64,000 bases of DNA, taken from positions 1 to 64,000 of the forward strand of contig JAWLHB010000021.1 in the NCBI GenBank assembly GCA_041690595.1, in the 5' to 3' direction. The notes under the pieces are model-generated. The model was not told the DNA's origin, made no database searches, and saw only the letters and a list, made by a program, of their open reading frames with translations. A program made the position numbers and the translations under genes. This document shows, one piece after another, positions 45,064 through 52,335 of this stretch. The number at the start of each line of letters is the position of its first letter. Positions within the stretch are counted from its first letter, which is position 1. The stretch comes from Lentisphaeria bacterium (lineage in GTDB: Bacteria; Verrucomicrobiota; Lentisphaeria; JABSQK01; JAWLHB01).

Positions 45064-45543
45064 ATGGATGTGCAGGCCACCACGACCGACGGCGCTTACA
45101 ACGGCTACGCGCCACTGCAATCGCAGATGATCGACAAAAGCGATTTTCTGCGCCTCCTGGTCAATCAGGTACAGCACCAGGATCCGCTGAACCCCATGAG
45201 CAATGAAGAGTTCGTGGGCCAGTTGACGCAGTTCAGCATCCTGGAGCAGAACCAGAATCTCAACTCGACGGTGCAGGCCCTCATGCAGCGGGGCGACATG
45301 CAGTACGCCGCATCGCTGGTGGGGCGGCATGTCGTCACCATGAGTGGCGAAACGACGATTTCGGGCCGCGTGGAATCCATCACCTTTGTGGATGGCGCTG
45401 AACCGCGGCTGACGATCAACGGGCAGCAGGTGCCACTCTCGGCAGTGATCGAGGTCACCGCCACAACGACCGAGCCGGCCACCGAGGAACCCGTTGTCGA
45501 TGAGCCAACAAGTACGCAACCATCTGAGGAGACTGAGCTATGA
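45064..45543 (+). CDS. flgD: Flagellar hook capping protein
   Basis: DFLRLLVNQVQHQDPLNPMSNEEFVGQLTQFS.LEQ..NLN; AASLVGR. Confidence 0.95.
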   Translation: MDVQATTTDGAYNGYAPLQSQMIDKSDFLRLLVNQVQHQDPLNPMSNEEFVGQLTQFSILEQNQNLNSTVQALMQRGDMQYAASLVGRHVVTMSGETTISGRVESITFVDGAEPRLTINGQQVPLSAVIEVTATTTEPATEEPVVDEPTSTQPSEETEL

Positions 45544-46358
45544 GCACGAATGCAATTCTGGTCGGCCGCGATGCCATGTTGGCGCAGACCCTGAAACTCA
45601 ACGTGATTGGCGATAATATCGCCAACAGCAACACGGTCGGCTACAAAGGGCGACGCGTTGTCTTTGCGGATCGCCTTGGCTTCTACACCGGCTCCACCTG
45701 GGCAAACGGTCTCCGGTCAAGTACCGGTCGGGGCGTCATGATCGGCGGCGGCACGACCGACTGGACGAGCGGCGTCATTGGCGACACGGGCGCTGCCACG
45801 CATCTGGCCATCTCCGGCGAAGGGATGCTGCCGGTCCAGTTGAACGGCACCACCTACTACACCCGTACCGGGGACTTCACCATGGTCGAGACCGGCCCCA
45901 ACACCGGCGAGTACCAGCTGATGCGCGCCGACGGCTCCGTCCTGATGGGAGGAACCGCCGATGCCAATGGTGTCGTGACCTTGAGCGGCCCCGTCACCAT
46001 TACCGGCAATCCTTCCGATCTGCGCTTCACGCAGGATGGGCTGGTGAGTGCCACCGGCGCGACGGTCACCAATGGTGAGATCGGCATTCAGCGTTTTGCC
46101 AATCCGGATGCCCTGACCCGCCGCGGCATGGGGCTCTACGAGACCACGGAATTGAGCGGCCCCGCCGGCCAGAATCCCGTTAAACCCGGTTCGGACGGTG
46201 GGGGTACTCTGGTGCAGGGCGCTCTGGAACAGTCCAACGTCGATCTCGTGAACGAGTTTTCGGAGCTGATCATTACGCAGCGCGCCTACCAGGCAAACTC
46301 GCGCACGATCACCACGGCTAACGAGATGCTGCAGGAAGTCCTGAACATCAAGCGCTGA
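45540..46358 (+). CDS. flgE: Flagellar hook protein, short form
   Basis: VIGDNIANSNTVGYK, YTRTGDF, GALEQSNVDLVNEFSELIITQRAYQANSRTITT; follows flgD. Confidence 0.85.
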   Translation: MSTNAILVGRDAMLAQTLKLNVIGDNIANSNTVGYKGRRVVFADRLGFYTGSTWANGLRSSTGRGVMIGGGTTDWTSGVIGDTGAATHLAISGEGMLPVQLNGTTYYTRTGDFTMVETGPNTGEYQLMRADGSVLMGGTADANGVVTLSGPVTITGNPSDLRFTQDGLVSATGATVTNGEIGIQRFANPDALTRRGMGLYETTELSGPAGQNPVKPGSDGGGTLVQGALEQSNVDLVNEFSELIITQRAYQANSRTITTANEMLQEVLNIKR

Positions 46359-46421: not shown

Positions 46422-46670
46422 ATGATATTAGTCACTGACATATCCGGATCGCGCATCTACCTCAACTCGGATCTGATCGAGCGGGTAGAGTGTGTGCCGG
46501 ACACCATCATCTTCCTGGCCAACGGTCATCGCTACATCATCCGGGAATCGCCGGCGGACGTGGTTCGGCTGATCGAGGGCCACAAGCGGCGCAGCACCTT
46601 AAGTCACCACCAACAGCATACGCAACGGGCGCGATACAGACTGCATTCGACGGCAGCCTGCCGCCCATAG
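46422..46670 (+). CDS. flbD: Flagellar FlbD (SwrD) family protein
   Basis: MILVT..SG..IYLNSDLIERVECVPDTIIFLANG..YIIRES. Confidence 0.92.
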   Translation: MILVTDISGSRIYLNSDLIERVECVPDTIIFLANGHRYIIRESPADVVRLIEGHKRRSTLSHHQQHTQRARYRLHSTAACRP

Positions 46671-46679
46671 GATATTTCC

Positions 46680-47444
46680 ATGGACATCGGTACACTCGTT
46701 GGCGTTCTGCTTGGCTTGAGCATGATCCTTGGCTCGATCCTGCTCGGGGGCGGAGCCTCCGCCTTCATCCACATTCCTTCCATGGCGATCACGCTCGGCG
46801 GGACCGCCGCCGCCCTGCTGATCACCTATCCGCTGGCAAAAGTGAAGGCTGTTTTCGCGGTAACCAAGAAGATTCTGAACGCGGGAAACCTCGACATGAC
46901 GCCGTGGTACCAGACCTTGACGGGAATGGCTACCGTAGCCAGGCGGGATGGTTTGCTCGCCCTTGAAGCGGAAGTCGAGAAGATCGAAGACGAGTTTCTT
47001 CGCAAGGGAATCCAGATGATGATCGATGGCAGCTCCCCCGAAGTGCTCCAAGCGGTACTCGAGCAGGAGATCGTCAATCTCGAAGAACGCCATTCCATCG
47101 GCCACGGAATCTACAAGAGCATGGGCACCTACGCGCCCGCTTTCGGCATGATCGGCACCCTCATGGGGCTGGTGCAGATGCTGCGCAACCTCAACGACCC
47201 GAGCCAGATCGGTGGCGGCATGGCCGTGGCGCTGCTGACGACCTTCTATGGGGCCTTCTTCGCCAACCTCTTCTGCATTCCCATTCAGGGGAAGCTCGAG
47301 CAGCGGACCAATGAGGAAGTCGCCCTGAAGCGAATGCTCCTCTGCGGCATCCTCTCCATTCACGCCGGGGACAGCCCGCGCGTGGTGGGCGACAAGCTCC
47401 TCGTCTTCTTCGGCCCCGCCGATCGCGTCAACCTTACCAAGTAG
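46680..47444 (+). CDS. motA: Flagellar stator subunit A (PomA/MotP-like)
   Basis: ARRDGLLALE, DEFLRKGIQMMIDG, APAFGMIGTLMGLVQML, MAVALLTTFYG. Confidence 0.96.
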   Translation: MDIGTLVGVLLGLSMILGSILLGGGASAFIHIPSMAITLGGTAAALLITYPLAKVKAVFAVTKKILNAGNLDMTPWYQTLTGMATVARRDGLLALEAEVEKIEDEFLRKGIQMMIDGSSPEVLQAVLEQEIVNLEERHSIGHGIYKSMGTYAPAFGMIGTLMGLVQMLRNLNDPSQIGGGMAVALLTTFYGAFFANLFCIPIQGKLEQRTNEEVALKRMLLCGILSIHAGDSPRVVGDKLLVFFGPADRVNLTK

Positions 47445-47453
47445 GAGCCGTAC

Positions 47454-48227
47454 ATGGGCAAGAGCAGCGGCGAACCCACCTGCCCAACGTGGATGGTCAC
47501 CCTCGGCGACTGCATGTCGCTCCTGGTGACCTTTTTTGTTCTGCTCCTCACCTTCTCCACCGTGAAGGAAGATCAGTTGATGGAACTGCTCGGCGTCATC
47601 AACGGTGCGCTGAATACGGTCGACGACATGCGCATGCGGGATCCCGAGAACAAGCAGAGCCTGGAGGGACGCCGCGAGTTGAGCGAAGAGACCGCCAGCC
47701 GCGGGCGGTGGGATGCAAACTACGTCGATCAGCACAAGGTCGCGCCGATGAGTGTTCGCGAAGCGGTCATCCAGCAGCGCTACAACCTGATGAGTTCACG
47801 CCTGCAGAGTCTTGGCTTCGGCAAGAACCTGACTTTGGTGCAACTCGCCGAGGGTCTGTCGCTTCAGGTGAGGCTGGACTCCGTCTTCATGCCCGATGGC
47901 AAGAACCTCAAACCGGAAGCGTACGCCATCCTGGCGGCCTTTGCCGACCTGGCGCTGGAGGTCTCGAACGAGGTCCGCATCTCGCTGCTGGTGGGGACCG
48001 GCGACGGCGCTGGTGGTCAGAGTGACAGCCAGCTCCTGCCACAGGCTCTGACCGTCGGAGCAGTCCTCTCACGCCGCTTCAAAATCGTGCCTACACGCAT
48101 GTCCTATGGTCTTGGGCGTAACCCACAAGACGGCCAGGACCGGCTGGAATTGATGCTGATGGACGCCATCCGCGCTCACGACGTGGCCATGCGTGATGTC
48201 GTACGTAACAACACCGATGTCTGGTAA
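47454..48227 (+). CDS. motB: Flagellar stator subunit B, paralog 1 (Asp retained, degenerate OmpA-like domain)
   Basis: PTWMVTLGDCMSLLVTFFVLL; periplasmic domain lacks the GHTD and RA motifs. Confidence 0.88.
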   Translation: MGKSSGEPTCPTWMVTLGDCMSLLVTFFVLLLTFSTVKEDQLMELLGVINGALNTVDDMRMRDPENKQSLEGRRELSEETASRGRWDANYVDQHKVAPMSVREAVIQQRYNLMSSRLQSLGFGKNLTLVQLAEGLSLQVRLDSVFMPDGKNLKPEAYAILAAFADLALEVSNEVRISLLVGTGDGAGGQSDSQLLPQALTVGAVLSRRFKIVPTRMSYGLGRNPQDGQDRLELMLMDAIRAHDVAMRDVVRNNTDVW

Positions 48228-48236
48228 CACAACACC

Positions 48237-48956
48237 ATGCCTACACCGAAAAAGAAGAAAGTCGAGGACGGGGCGCCTGCCTACTTCGGGCTCTTCTGCA
48301 GTCTGATGACCGTGCTGTTGGCCTTCTTCATCCTGATGACCGCCATGGCCGACGAGCAGGAGAGTGGCTTTCACAAGGGGATCGGGGACATCCGCAACGC
48401 CTTTGGCATCCGCGGCGGTTTCGGGCTCTTCACCTATGCGCATCTGGTGCGGGGGAACATGAGCCATCGAACCCCCGAAGAATTCTCCGTGGACGATGGC
48501 CTCGACGCCCTGCACGAAGATATGGTCGCCGGCAAGGGCGGCGGGGGCAATACCGACGTCAATACAACGAGTACAAGCGACGCGCGCTATCTGCGGGTGA
48601 GAATTCCCCACCCCTATCCGACCAGTGAACACTTGGCGGCCAGCGAGCTGGGAAACTTCCTGCAGATCGCTGGCACGGCGCTTGCGTTACTCGAGTACGA
48701 GATCACCATCAAGGCGTACAACATGGACCAGGCAACCGAAGCGGAGAACTGCAAAGTGGCCTTCGAGCGGGCAGTAGCTGTCACCAGATACATCAACACG
48801 CGCTGTCGGGTGCCTCATGCGCGCCTGAAAGCAGTGGGCTACACGACGCTGCCCAGCCAGGGATTGCCCGAAGGGTGCAGCCCCGACGAACCGGCCTTGT
48901 GGATCGACATCTATCGGCCGCCGCAAACCGAAGTGCCTCCGCGGGACGCCCGCTGA
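48237..48956 (+). CDS. MotB-like protein, paralog 2 (Ser at the conserved Asp position)
   Basis: Basic N-terminus, PAYFGLFCSLMTVLLAFFILM TM, plug-like helix, OmpA-like ENCKVAFERAVAV...RLKAVGY. Confidence 0.8.
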   Translation: MPTPKKKKVEDGAPAYFGLFCSLMTVLLAFFILMTAMADEQESGFHKGIGDIRNAFGIRGGFGLFTYAHLVRGNMSHRTPEEFSVDDGLDALHEDMVAGKGGGGNTDVNTTSTSDARYLRVRIPHPYPTSEHLAASELGNFLQIAGTALALLEYEITIKAYNMDQATEAENCKVAFERAVAVTRYINTRCRVPHARLKAVGYTTLPSQGLPEGCSPDEPALWIDIYRPPQTEVPPRDAR

Positions 48957-48996: not shown

Positions 48997-49524
48997 ATGG
49001 CGGAAGAAGGCACCAGGTCAGGAGACGATGTGGGTGCGGCCACCGGCAAGAAGCCGAGCAAAGGACGAAGCACCATCACCCTGCTCGTCGTGGTCTCGGC
49101 GGTAGTGATGATCCTTACCCCGCTGATCACCATCCTTGTGGTCCGTTCGCTGAGCCAGAAGAAGGCGCAGACGGTGCAGAAGCTCGATACCGTCGAACTG
49201 CCGCTCCCGAAGGTTCAGGTGAACGTGGCGGAGACGAATGGCACCCGCTATGCGCAGATCGATGTCGTCGTGGAGTTGAGCGGCAGTGATGTGCTCCCCT
49301 ACTTCGAGAACCAGACCGCGCAGAACACCCACGGCCAGCTGCGCCGGATGATGTCGAGCATCATCTCCATCATCTCCAGCAAGGAACTCGATGGACTGCT
49401 GACCAGCGAAGCGAAGGAGACGCTGGCGGCCGAGATCCGCGAGGCGCTCAACGAGCACCTGCGATCGGTCGAAGCGCGCGGTCTGGTCACTGATGTCTAT
49501 TTCTGCGGTTTTCTCATCCAGTAA
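48997..49524 (+). CDS. fliL: Flagellar basal body-associated protein
   Basis: Single N-terminal TM, VNVAETNGTRY, AKETLAAEIREALN, VTDVYFCGFLIQ. Confidence 0.92.
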   Translation: MAEEGTRSGDDVGAATGKKPSKGRSTITLLVVVSAVVMILTPLITILVVRSLSQKKAQTVQKLDTVELPLPKVQVNVAETNGTRYAQIDVVVELSGSDVLPYFENQTAQNTHGQLRRMMSSIISIISSKELDGLLTSEAKETLAAEIREALNEHLRSVEARGLVTDVYFCGFLIQ

Positions 49525-49542: not shown

Positions 49543-50547
49543 ATGGCGGGTATCCTTTCACAAGATGAAGTCGATGCACTGTTGCAGGCAGTGGAAGACG
49601 GCGATGTCGAGCTGGGCGCCGGCCAGGCCATGGGAGGCACCGTCGGCGATTTCGAGGTTACGGAGTACAGCTTCCGTCGTCCCAACCTGTTGACGCGTGA
49701 CCAGCTGCGCCTCTTCAATACGCTTCACGACCACTTCACGGGCGAAGCCCAGTCACGCCTCTCACTGAGCCTGCGAACAACCAGCGAGATGCGTCTCGTC
49801 GCCTCGGACCAGTTGCAGTACGGCGAATTCATCCTTTCCCTTCCGGATGTGACCCATCTGCTGGTCCTCTCCCTGGATCCGGGGCCCGGCTACATCATTC
49901 TGGAGGTCGGCCTGCCCTTCATCTTCACGATTGTCGACGTGATCCTGGGGGGAACCGGGACCACGCCGATGGAGCATCGTGGCCTCACCGATATGGAGTC
50001 GGCAATCGCGGAACCGATTCTCGATGAGTTGGTGACTGAGCTGGAGCGCTGCCTTGCCCATATCACCGAATGCAAGCTGACCCGTCAGCGCGTCGAAAGC
50101 AGCCCGCAATATGTGCAGGCAGTGCCCGCGGACACCGCCTCGATGGTGATGACCTTCGAGGTGCGCGTCGGCGAAGGTGCCGGCGTCATCAACGTCTGCT
50201 ACCCCATACCCGTGGTCGAGCGACTCCTGGTCAACGTGCATGGACGCGGAGGCGAAGGCGATCTCTTTCGCGAGGAAGTCGACACCAAGCAGCAGGGCGA
50301 TCGGCCGCACATCGGCATCGATGATATTCCGGTTACCTTGACGGCGATCCTGGGAGGAGCGCGCATCACCGTAAGGGATCTGGTAAACCTGCGCCAGGGC
50401 GATGTTCTGGTCATCGACTCTCCGATCACCGCCCTGACACGTGTCGACGCGGAAGGAGTCCCACAGTTCTTCGGGCGCCCAGGCAATCGCCATGGCAAGC
50501 TCGTCGTCAAAGTCACCGGTTATTGTTCGAAAAAACAGCGGTTCTAG
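49543..50547 (+). CDS. fliM: Flagellar motor switch protein
   Basis: ILSQDEVDALL CheY-binding motif, YSFRRP, LTDME, C-terminal SpoA domain. Confidence 0.95.
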   Translation: MAGILSQDEVDALLQAVEDGDVELGAGQAMGGTVGDFEVTEYSFRRPNLLTRDQLRLFNTLHDHFTGEAQSRLSLSLRTTSEMRLVASDQLQYGEFILSLPDVTHLLVLSLDPGPGYIILEVGLPFIFTIVDVILGGTGTTPMEHRGLTDMESAIAEPILDELVTELERCLAHITECKLTRQRVESSPQYVQAVPADTASMVMTFEVRVGEGAGVINVCYPIPVVERLLVNVHGRGGEGDLFREEVDTKQQGDRPHIGIDDIPVTLTAILGGARITVRDLVNLRQGDVLVIDSPITALTRVDAEGVPQFFGRPGNRHGKLVVKVTGYCSKKQRF

Positions 50548-50565: not shown

Positions 50566-51030
50566 ATGGCTGACGATCCCCTTGATGCATTTGGCGGCGC
50601 TGATTTCAAAGGAATCAGCGAGGACGAACTGGCTGCGGCAGGCTTCGGTACGGAACCATGCAGCGATGACAGCTTCAGCGACGACAGCGCCGACTTTGGC
50701 GACGATATCGCGGCTGCCGGCTTTGGCAATGTCTTCGACCCCGAGGTCGGTAAGAGCTCCGGCGGCAATACCAATCTGGAGATGGTCTTCGAGATTCCTG
50801 TCCGGTTGTGCGCCGAGCTTGGCGACACGACCATTTCGATCAAGGATCTGATGTCCTTCGGGCCAGGCTCCGTCATCGAGCTGCAGCGTCTGGCGGGTGA
50901 GCCCGCGAACTTGATGGTGAATGGGGTGCTGGTCGGTAAAGGGGATGTGGTGGTGGTAAACGAAAATTATGGTTTGCGCATCACGGAACTGATCAGTGCC
51001 GAAGAGCGGGTGCGGCAGCTGGCGCAGTGA
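50566..51030 (+). CDS. fliN: Flagellar motor switch protein
   Basis: EIPVRLCAELG, GSVIELQRLAGEP, GDVVVVNENYGLRITE. Confidence 0.95.
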   Translation: MADDPLDAFGGADFKGISEDELAAAGFGTEPCSDDSFSDDSADFGDDIAAAGFGNVFDPEVGKSSGGNTNLEMVFEIPVRLCAELGDTTISIKDLMSFGPGSVIELQRLAGEPANLMVNGVLVGKGDVVVVNENYGLRITELISAEERVRQLAQ

Positions 51031-51043
51031 TGTGGAGGTCACG

Positions 51044-51634
51044 GTGAAAGAGTGGGTGAATCTTCACGCATGGCTCAACTGCGTGATAGCGCTGGCAGCC
51101 ATAACGGGCGCATGCCTGATCTGCTATCAGTTTCGCAGCCTGCCGGCCATCTATCTTGCCGGCGTCTGGATGGTGGCATGCTTCTTCGGTGTCCTGAACG
51201 CATTCTGCAACCATGGCACGAGCCGCCCGGTGCTCTCTCTCAGTTGGTCCCTCCTGCTTGTATACAGCCTGCCCCTGCTCCTGCTGCAGGCTGAGTATTC
51301 GGTGATGGATGCCATACTCGCCGGCGCCGCCGTGGCGGCACTTGTCTCCCTTTTCGGCCCGAGTCTTTGCGGCATCACCATGCTGGCGGGCACCGTGCAG
51401 AGCATCGCCTTTTACTGGTATATTCTGGGTGAGCAGCTCTCGCTCGATGATCTCGACTGGCAACTTGCCATGTCCAACGCCTTGTTGCTCGTTATTGCTG
51501 CCCTTGTCTGTCGCGCCCTCTTCTGCTGGCTGATCAGAAGCCGCGGGGGCCAACCCCGGGGGCACGAGCCGGCAGCCGTAACCGCCATCGACTCATCGGA
51601 CGAAGGTAGTGTGCCCCCGGAGGTGACCGCATGA
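51044..51634 (+). CDS. Hypothetical polytopic membrane protein (about 6 TM)
   Basis: SD ggagg before GTG 51044; several hydrophobic segments; ATGA overlap with the next gene. Confidence 0.65.
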   Translation: MKEWVNLHAWLNCVIALAAITGACLICYQFRSLPAIYLAGVWMVACFFGVLNAFCNHGTSRPVLSLSWSLLLVYSLPLLLLQAEYSVMDAILAGAAVAALVSLFGPSLCGITMLAGTVQSIAFYWYILGEQLSLDDLDWQLAMSNALLLVIAALVCRALFCWLIRSRGGQPRGHEPAAVTAIDSSDEGSVPPEVTA

Positions 51635-52335
51635 TCCATCAGCCTGTTGCTGCCCCTGCCTTCCTCGAACTTCCTCGGCTGAGCCAGGTGATCCGTCACC
51701 GATTGCGCAATTTCAGTGGCGGCGCCGGCATGGCGCTGCATTATCTCGAGAGTTGCTGCTCGAAGGAGGACGCGCTTGCCGGGGATTTTCTGGCTGCGAT
51801 GCAGGGTTCGGTCGAAGAGCTTTGCCGCTTCAGCGAACGCCTCGACCTGCTGGTCGACGTGCTGCCCGCCCCTCAGCCGGAGTATCTGGGCACTTGCCTC
51901 GATCAGCTACGCCTGCGCCAGGAGCGGCAGTGGCCCTACGCACATCTTGCGATTCACGGCGACATGCCGGAGCTGACGGTGCGCTGTGGCTCCTGGCTGG
52001 TGATCGTCCTTCAGGAGCTTGTCTCCAACGCCTTCGAGGCACAGCCGCGGGATGGCTCCCTGCAGATCGAGATCACGGCCATCGAGCCGCTCTGCATCAG
52101 CCTGATGAATCCTCCCGGAGATGCCGTTGGTCTGCCGCCTCTGCAGGCAGGCCCTTTCACCCATGCGCGGGGTGGGCATGACGGCATGGGACTCGCCCTT
52201 GCCAAGCGCCTGTGCCACGCCGTCGCCGGTGACCTCGCCACCGACTGGACGGACACACGCCACATCTGCGTCACCCTGCGCTGGCCGGAGCTGCCTAAAG
52301 GTGAAAGATCTTGCCCAGATCCACGACTTTGCTGA
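51631..52335 (+). CDS. Sensorless histidine kinase-like protein (degenerate HisKA plus HATPase_c)
   Basis: IRHRLRN H-box-like, QELVSNAFEA N-box, GPFTHARGGHDGMGLALAKRL F/G2 box; no DxG G1 box. Confidence 0.7.
   Translation: MIHQPVAAPAFLELPRLSQVIRHRLRNFSGGAGMALHYLESCCSKEDALAGDFLAAMQGSVEELCRFSERLDLLVDVLPAPQPEYLGTCLDQLRLRQERQWPYAHLAIHGDMPELTVRCGSWLVIVLQELVSNAFEAQPRDGSLQIEITAIEPLCISLMNPPGDAVGLPPLQAGPFTHARGGHDGMGLALAKRLCHAVAGDLATDWTDTRHICVTLRWPELPKGERSCPDPRLC

Follow-up and report, generated by a model that had tools for sequence, protein, structure and literature searches.

A compact flagellar operon on the plus strand of a Lentisphaeria bacterium contig (GenBank assembly GCA_041690595.1, contig JAWLHB010000021.1) carries a single motA gene followed by two different motB-like genes, of which only the first encodes the ion-binding aspartate (Asp) of flagellar stators. 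Positions given below refer to the window, i.e., the whole stretch of 64,000 nucleotides that was analysed (positions 1 to 64,000 of the contig). The Asp-bearing paralog, denoted B1 (47454–48227, +, 257 aa), and the Asp-less paralog, denoted B2 (48237–48956, +, 239 aa), lie directly 3' of motA (46680–47444, +), and motA/B1 and B1/B2 are each separated by 9 nt. The open reading frames (ORFs) and their coordinates therefore bear out the arrangement described in an earlier reading of the letters alone (hereafter the sequence-only reading), namely one motA and two tandem motB-like genes. The motA gene is the only one of the locus (Pfam MotA_ExbB, 112 bits) and is closest to the PomA/MotP type, its best NCBIfam matches being MotP and PomA, all under the equivalog cut-offs. 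Both B proteins exceed the Pfam MotB_plug cut-off of 24 bits, with 41.4 bits for B1 and 26.4 bits for B2.

The two paralogs differ at the ion-binding position of the transmembrane (TM) helix. The N-terminus of B1 aligned without gaps to solved Vibrio PomB (8brd, 8zyv; phmmer, E = 2e-5), with TLGDCMSLL against TFADLMSLL of PomB, and B2 likewise aligned without gaps to PomB 8brd (E = 6e-4), with LFCSLMTVL against the same PomB segment. The column of the PomB Asp (D24 in Vibrio) is occupied by D19 in B1 (GAC codon, 47508–47510, +), the ion-binding site by alignment, and by S22 in B2 (AGT codon, 48300–48302, +). Codons and PomB alignment thus agree with the Asp/Ser difference that the sequence-only reading had placed at equivalent TM positions. 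BLASTP between B1 and B2 gave no significant similarity (best E = 0.61), which makes them old paralogs, and their kinship is visible only through profiles and the shared PomB alignment. That reading had also named another acidic residue at the site as a finding that would speak against it; the translations of B2 orthologs contain no other acidic residue in the TM helix, which excludes ion conduction by B2 through the known route. Nor does the MotA translation of the window have a compensating acidic residue in TM3 or TM4.

The genome is 8.1 Mb in size and 97% complete, and B1 and B2 are its only MotB_plug matches. Their uniqueness in the assembly, their place between motA and fliL and the recurrence of the arrangement in relatives speak against a coincidence. 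The motA of the window is the best among 12 MotA_ExbB matches genome-wide; since there is no further MotB_plug gene, the remaining 11 probably belong to the ExbB/TolQ type. The genome also carries three flagellin genes, fliG and flhA, so a working flagellum is plausible, with the motA-B1-B2 locus as the only stator locus of the genome. It follows from this sole pair that the only Asp-bearing MotB of the bacterium is the protein with the degenerate peptidoglycan-binding motif described below.

The operon runs in the order flgD-flgE-flbD-motA-B1-B2-fliL-fliM-fliN, as assigned by Pfam matches of the window ORFs. It begins with flgD, encoding the hook cap (45064–45543, +; FlgD 68.6 bits, FLgD_tudor), followed by a FlgE/FlgG-like hook or rod protein (45540–46358, +; Flg_bb_rod, LlgE_F_G_D1, Flg_bbr_C) and by flbD (46422–46670, +; FlbD 74.2 bits). 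The hook-type protein has only 272 aa, consisting of the rod N-terminus, the D1 domain and the C-terminus, and appears short compared with the typical length of FlgE. Downstream of B2 are fliL (48997–49524, +; FliL 61.7 bits), fliM (49543–50547, +; FliM 131.7 bits, FliMN_C) and fliN (50566–51030, +; FliMN_C 82 bits). The region 3' of fliN (50996–52335) encodes a 212-aa multi-pass membrane protein that matches no Pfam family. The next ORF, which shares 4 nt with it, encodes a 234-aa protein with a HATPase_c domain only. These two ORFs may together form a sensor kinase split in two and appended to the flagellar operon.

Distribution, descent and selection

In a first sample of 40 relatives from the same order or class, a B2 ortholog was found in eight. 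Six of these have motA-B1-B2, followed by fliL-fliM where the sequence extends far enough, and in the other two, which belong to one genus, motA directly abuts B2. One genome of this genus (G040) carries an Asp-bearing B1 ortholog on another contig (C112, 877–1680, minus) without an adjacent motA. In this genus motA is linked to B2 while B1 stands apart with no motA beside it, which implies that one MotA serves both B proteins. The unlinked B1 lies directly downstream of a gene for a 487-aa hybrid of response regulator and histidine kinase, a hint that the Asp-bearing subunit is regulated separately.

Among 301 genomes sampled evenly from this class, 19 contained B2, 18 contained B1, and 17 contained both. 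The two genomes with B2 only are an 86%-complete metagenome-assembled genome (MAG) of the genus in which motA abuts B2 (G031) and a genome in which the contig ends ~60 bases upstream of B2 (G276). The one genome with B1 only (G004, 2.0 Mb, 95% complete) contains a 90-aa B1 remnant (C1, 4687–4959, minus) and no B2. This remnant comprises the TM region, in which Arg-Asp replaces Gly-Asp, and has the appearance of a leftover from a flagellar system since lost.

Two irregular ORFs were also recorded. In a 78%-complete MAG, B1 is split into ORFs of 94 aa and 180 aa (G265:C36, 2221–3007, minus) by a frameshift or an assembly error. Another genome has a single 506-aa ORF in which a B1-type part (with Asp) and a B2-type part (with Val) follow each other with no stop between them (G300:C45, 2044–3564, minus); it contains an internal ATG ahead of the B2 part, and the same genome holds three to four B1/B2 pairs. 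This ORF was considered as a fusion indicating a 1:1 ratio and set aside as most likely the result of a lost stop codon or of misassembly, because a true fusion would leave the C-terminal domain of B2 in the cytoplasm. No other B1-B2 fusion was found among the top 150 cluster representatives of the profile search described below.

A scan with one genome per species found close relatives in Lentisphaeria/Victivallales/Lentisphaerales, in Kiritimatiellae and in other Verrucomicrobiota MAGs. The MotB-like ORFs of 79 public loci were then classified with small profiles; 34 loci contain an Asp-less MotB-like ORF, 44 contain Asp-bearing ORFs only, and one was left unclassified. Among the 34 Asp-less loci, 19 are of what we label the PVC type, and 15 come from other lineages. 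The latter include Myxococcales-like and other proteobacterial MAGs, SAR324, Desulfobacterales, Zetaproteobacteria, Rickettsiales and alphaproteobacterial MAGs, Sumerlaeota, Nitrospirota and Planctomycetota.

An Asp-bearing MotB is directly adjacent in 29 of the 34 loci, while three loci are truncated where the contig or locus ends and two show motA abutting B2. Each Asp-less locus has a single motA. The gene order is motA-B1(Asp)-B2 in the PVC type and the Planctomycetota locus and is reversed in the others (motA, Asp-less, Asp). In most loci, B2 is flanked by gaps of 0–9 nt or by overlaps, and in the PVC order it stands between B1 and fliL. The residue at the site is Ser in 15 loci, Ala in 13, Ile in three, Gly in two and Gln in one, and never Asp or Glu. 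Further loci from relatives add Val, Ala, Ser and Gly, with no Asp in any of seven B2-type ORFs. The motA-motB-motB synteny with an Asp/Ser split, which the sequence-only reading had suggested looking for in other genomes, thus recurs with a site that is never acidic, and the outcome that would have spoken against it, orthologs of B2 mostly keeping Asp, was seen in none of the 34 loci. D19 is in turn invariant in all 29 Asp-bearing partners of Asp-less MotBs. Two cluster representatives from the profile search described next (P0154 and P0195) combine a B2-like N-terminal signature (G.PAYM...) with Asp at the site, and may be transitional forms linking canonical MotB to the Asp-less family.

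A profile built from 33 Asp-less proteins was searched against 1.84 billion cluster representatives and yielded 816 matches at E ≤ 1e-30. Among the top 150, which are 50%-identity representatives, 133 had a match to the MotB-type TM region, and of these the site is non-acidic in 108, Asp in 23 and gapped in two. By these numbers the family is large. Its members bear generic database names such as "chemotaxis protein MotB", "MotB", "OmpA/MotB family" and "hypothetical" (homolog search, ESM Atlas). The deposit 3khn (Desulfovibrio DVU_2228, "putative MotB-like") was considered as a solved Asp-less member and left unassigned, since it consists of the periplasmic domain only and matches both Desulfobacterales partners similarly (48 and 58 bits).

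A quick maximum-likelihood tree was computed for 87 MotB-like proteins; from 26 near-identical Nitrospinota-type loci, it retains six rows (every fourth). The 52 Asp-bearing rows, together with one long-branched Asp-less row from Planctomycetota, formed a group with a Shimodaira-Hasegawa-like approximate likelihood ratio test (SH-aLRT) support of 93. The PVC B2 proteins formed a clade with a support of 100, and the PVC B1 proteins fell inside a group of Asp-bearing partners of Asp-less proteins with a support of 92. The same three PVC subgroups were found in the B1 and B2 subtrees. When the 35 Asp-less rows were constrained together, a group defined by the residue and tested after the tree was seen, the log-likelihood was 59 above that of the free quick search, with p = 0.98 in the approximately unbiased (AU) test. 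A single origin of the Asp-less family is therefore not rejected by these alignments.

Pairwise ratios of nonsynonymous to synonymous substitution (dN/dS; Nei-Gojobori method, NG86) were 0.02–0.31 for B2, 0.08–0.25 for B1 and 0.02–0.23 for MotA where dS was computable, with many dS values near saturation. B2 is accordingly under purifying selection and not evolving neutrally, a possibility that the sequence-only reading had listed against itself. Its argument that full-length ORFs speak against decay is strengthened by this result and by the conservation of B2 orthologs across several phyla. In 10 PVC loci, the mean pairwise identity of B2 was 0.73 in the TM helix and 0.31 in the rest, close to the values of B1 (0.77 and 0.27), and FliL, which served as a control, had 0.43 and 0.34. 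A B2 TM helix as conserved as that of B1 is expected of a helix packed inside MotA and not of a plain membrane anchor. The anatomy of the locus, the conservation of both paralogs, their co-occurrence and the purifying selection on them are matters of observation.

Plug region and periplasmic domains

The AlphaFold2 model of B1 has helices at residues 12–36 and 39–53, the second of which is predicted where the plug is expected, and its C-terminal domain has a predicted local distance difference test (pLDDT) score of ~90. In the model of B2, the TM helix spans residues 15–37, residues 42–114 have pLDDT below 50, and the C-terminal domain again reaches ~90. The best Foldseek match of B1 is Salmonella MotB_C (2zov, E = 1e-7), and that of B2 is the peptidoglycan-binding domain of OprF (5u1h, E = 3e-7). 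B1 has no Pfam OmpA match, and B2 scores 19.8 bits, below the cut-off of 27.2. At E ≤ 0.01, Pfam OmpA matched 26 of 33 Asp-less proteins and 15 of 29 Asp-bearing partners, the latter consisting of 3 of 16 PVC B1 proteins and 12 of 13 non-PVC partners.

Three stretches outside the conserved folds were also recorded. The Gly-rich segment of B2 on the C-terminal side of the TM helix (residues 44–63) contains G44, G48, G50, G61 and G63, which are invariant in nine orthologs. The B2 linker (residues 97–107) carries a motif KG.GGGGNT[DE] that is kept in Lentisphaeria and not in Kiritimatiellae. Beyond the OmpA-like fold, PVC B1 proteins share a C-terminal tail (48140–48224 in the window) with the pattern E.xLxE..G...VS...LL, for which the helical prediction is of low confidence.

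The peptidoglycan-binding motif was scored at two columns, the Asp of the canonical GHTD and the Arg of LS..RA. B1 of the window has Gly at the first and Gln at the second. Across PVC B1 proteins the GHTD Asp is present in 0 of 16 and the Arg in 12 of 16, and across PVC B2 proteins the Arg is present in all 19 and the Asp in one; 14 of the 19 carry an acidic residue at the following position. R178 of B2 is invariant in nine of nine orthologs and nearly invariant across the 33 Asp-less proteins. The sequence-only reading had proposed a reciprocal loss of this motif, quoting ISLLVGTG and SQLLPQALTV in B1 and the patterns ERA.AV and RL.AVGY in B2; the translations contain the first two and, for the patterns, ERAVAV and RLKAVGY. 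In outline the proposal holds for the window, but it is overstated, because both C-terminal domains have an OmpA-like fold. The loss in B1 is real at the two key columns, although the protein retains a confident OmpA-like/MotB_C fold and most PVC B1 proteins keep the Arg. The retention in B2 stands for the conserved Arg, whereas the domain is divergent, with its sub-threshold Pfam OmpA score and a GHTD Asp that is nearly always missing.

In the 13 non-PVC pairs, both canonical residues are kept by the Asp-less protein only in three, by the Asp-bearing protein only in five, by both in two and by neither in three. Such a variable keeper fits redundancy within one complex. Judged from these alignments, the peptidoglycan-residue pattern across lineages appears to be a mosaic in which either partner keeps the canonical residues, with no clean rule.

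Stator composition

B2, as its profile matches and alignments indicate, is part of a conserved MotB paralog family in which the ion-binding Asp has been lost and whose members are accompanied by an Asp-bearing MotB. We consider the best reading of the locus, with confidence evenly balanced, to be a mixed stator of composition MotA5:B1:B2 with a single Asp. One B1 and one B2 TM helix would be inserted together into the MotA pentamer. B1 would contribute the only Asp and the plug helix, and B2 would contribute a permanently neutral second axle helix (with Ser, Ala, Gly, Ile, Val or Gln at the site) as well as the better preserved cell-wall-binding domain. In terms of the 5:2 rotary model, the neutral residue would resemble a protonated Asp, so that the B2 half-step could pass without an ion and the ion-driven strokes would come from B1 only.

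Co-assembly, the 1:1 ratio and the single-Asp working cycle are what we infer beyond the observations. The shared pentamer is suggested by the MotB-type TM signature of B2, which is kept across phyla, and by the constant presence of an Asp-bearing partner. The use of the same MotA implied by the unlinked B1 and the degenerate wall-binding residues of PVC B1 proteins point in the same direction. The sequence-only reading had proposed that the two B subunits split labour, and a pair that is conserved, co-inherited and usually adjacent fits this proposal, whereas the heterodimer itself goes beyond these observations and has a weak model score. The wider claim is that MotA5:B1:B2 is obligately heteromeric in many flagellated bacteria, with one Asp per unit and a neutral axle half that shares or takes over anchoring. 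It would cover Lentisphaeria, Kiritimatiellae, Planctomycetota, several deltaproteobacteria-like lineages, Zetaproteobacteria and some alphaproteobacterial MAGs, and we hold it to be tentative, with a chance slightly short of even.

Several points weigh against a mixed stator. At the plug position, B2 has no predicted helix, and the AlphaFold2 model shows the Gly-rich segment and a disordered linker instead. According to this model, B2 may behave unlike a stator B subunit. In 5 of the 13 non-PVC pairs, both canonical peptidoglycan residues are in the Asp-bearing partner only, and one such partner matches Clostridium MotB (6ysf) with 136 bits. A canonical-looking partner of this kind could work alone, so that B2 need not be an obligate half of the axle.

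Structure prediction of the periplasmic domains weakly supports B1-B2 pairing. The predicted complex of B1 residues 95–245 with B2 residues 112–232 had an interaction prediction score from aligned errors (ipSAE) of 0.58, compared with 0.02 for the best of three controls and with homodimers left out of the comparison. The ipSAE mark is reached by 116 of 157 solved complexes and by 2 of 215 mismatched pairs, and scores of 0.60 or below include 18 of the 157 and both passing mismatches. Contact agreement between runs was at least 72%, and partner pLDDT was at least 74. Since solved MotB_C homodimers exist, the pass may come from likeness. Substitutions of E. coli MotB D32 are dominant-negative, which suggests that mixed wild-type/neutral dimers or motors work poorly in that bacterium. 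The comparative data are MAGs or draft genomes throughout, and among the sequencing runs there is no RNA dataset for this genome, only four sediment-metagenome DNA runs in which it has small shares.

The strongest alternative is that two kinds of unit exist. MotA5:B1(2) would be the sole torque generator, and B2 would form an ion-dead MotA5:B2(2) or a separate membrane-anchored, cell-wall-binding accessory. Such an accessory could surround the rotor as a scaffold or placeholder, or else act as a brake or help in assembly, in a role like that of MotY/T-ring or FliL scaffolds. We take this to be a serious contender that is nevertheless somewhat improbable. It accords with a B2 that lacks the Asp, any other TM acidic residue and a predicted plug helix and yet has an OmpA-like domain with an invariant Arg. 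The resemblance of the Asp-bearing partner to a complete canonical MotB in several non-PVC lineages and the dominant-negative effect of neutral D32 mutants would also be explained. However, the B2 TM helix keeps the MotB signature and is conserved like that of B1, and a plain anchor needs neither. Moreover, the GHTD Asp is missing from all 16 PVC B1 proteins and Pfam OmpA matches only three of them, so a B1-only stator would need another anchor. The tight operon position of B2 between B1 and fliL suggests fixed co-expression and not conditional braking.

It is far less probable that B1 and B2 are alternative subunits used under different conditions, with MotA forming active stators with a homodimer of either, an arrangement that has been proposed for other organisms possessing several stator sets. 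A precedent is found in Aquifex aeolicus, where, in the accessible portion of the report, motA is accompanied by tandem motB1 and motB2 with strongly differing periplasmic regions, and the TM region of each MotB is functional with MotA in chimeras (PMC4525482). The TM/N-terminal regions of those two proteins are, however, 97% identical, and only residue 20 (Gly/Ser) differs in the TM regions (same source and portion). B2, by contrast, has no acidic TM residue in 34 loci and there is none in MotA TM3/TM4, so a B2 homodimer would have no known ion-binding site. Decay of B2 into a functionless duplicate, for which the missing essential Asp and the sub-threshold Pfam OmpA score could be cited, is effectively refuted by conservation: the ORF is full length, its orthologs form one family in several phyla with dN/dS of 0.02–0.31, invariant residues and a highly conserved TM helix, and 108 Asp-less representatives stand among the top 150 matches. 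A TonB/TolA-like role for B2 was also considered and rejected, since its TM helix is of the MotB type and not of the TonB/TolA type, judged against the TonB/TolA motif as generally known.

Implications and comparison with known stators

In current models of MotA5MotB2, the two MotB Asp residues alternate in ion binding while the MotA ring turns. If the mixed MotA5:B1:B2 stator is real, a natural and widespread single-Asp stator would offer a direct test of this alternation. The 5:2 rotary cycle would then not depend on alternation between two Asp residues, and each revolution may consume half as many ions. Such a stator would show whether one site suffices, how the ion cost per turn can be tuned, and what effect a permanently neutral second site has on stepping and direction. 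If there are instead two kinds of unit, B2 would represent a large family, so far without a name, of ion-dead accessory proteins derived from MotB, which databases now label simply MotB. For annotation, two "MotB" genes in these genomes do not equal two stator systems.

The canonical stators MotA5MotB2 and PomA5PomB2 (6ysf, 6ysl, 8brd, 8zyv) resemble the locus of the window in that a flagellar operon encodes a single A-type subunit and its B-type partners, and they share with it the MotB-type TM/plug regions, the OmpA-like C-terminal fold and, in B1, the Asp. Unlike them, the window has two different B genes, Ser in place of Asp in B2, degenerate peptidoglycan-binding residues in B1 and no predicted plug helix in B2.

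The MotY/T-ring of Vibrio is an OmpA-like domain protein that helps to hold stators, which is the role that B2 would have if two kinds of unit existed. MotY is soluble and periplasmic, without a MotB-type TM helix, whereas that of B2 is strongly conserved.

The Aquifex operon is alike in having one motA followed by two tandem motB genes. Compared with what the accessible part of that report describes, the TM regions of B1 and B2 differ, B2 lacks the Asp, and the two paralogs have no significant BLASTP similarity (PMC4525482). In the accessible text on the Myxococcus gliding motor, AglQ and AglS form a heterodimeric TolR-like axle in an AglR pentamer, which is itself a prediction (PMC11761067). 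As far as this text goes, AglR-AglQ-AglS is alike in being a 5:2-type motor with one A-type and two different B-type subunits, as in motA-B1-B2, and unlike in being non-flagellar and belonging to the TolQR branch. For Borrelia, the available part of a 2026 preprint describes in situ two chemically identical MotB Asp sites in different environments (10.64898/2026.10.14.759253).

The terms "aspartate", "D32" and "heterodimer" are absent from the accessible main text of a 2025 survey of MotAB evolution (PMC12505986). Likewise, neither an Asp-less MotB paralog occurring in nature nor a heterodimer of flagellar MotB proteins was described in the accessible portions of the openly readable full-text literature (including PMC12505986 and PMC12890895). 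Seen against these systems, the Asp-less MotB pair belongs to a known kind of stator and adds a new variation to it, for which a heterodimer of B1 and B2 is plausible.

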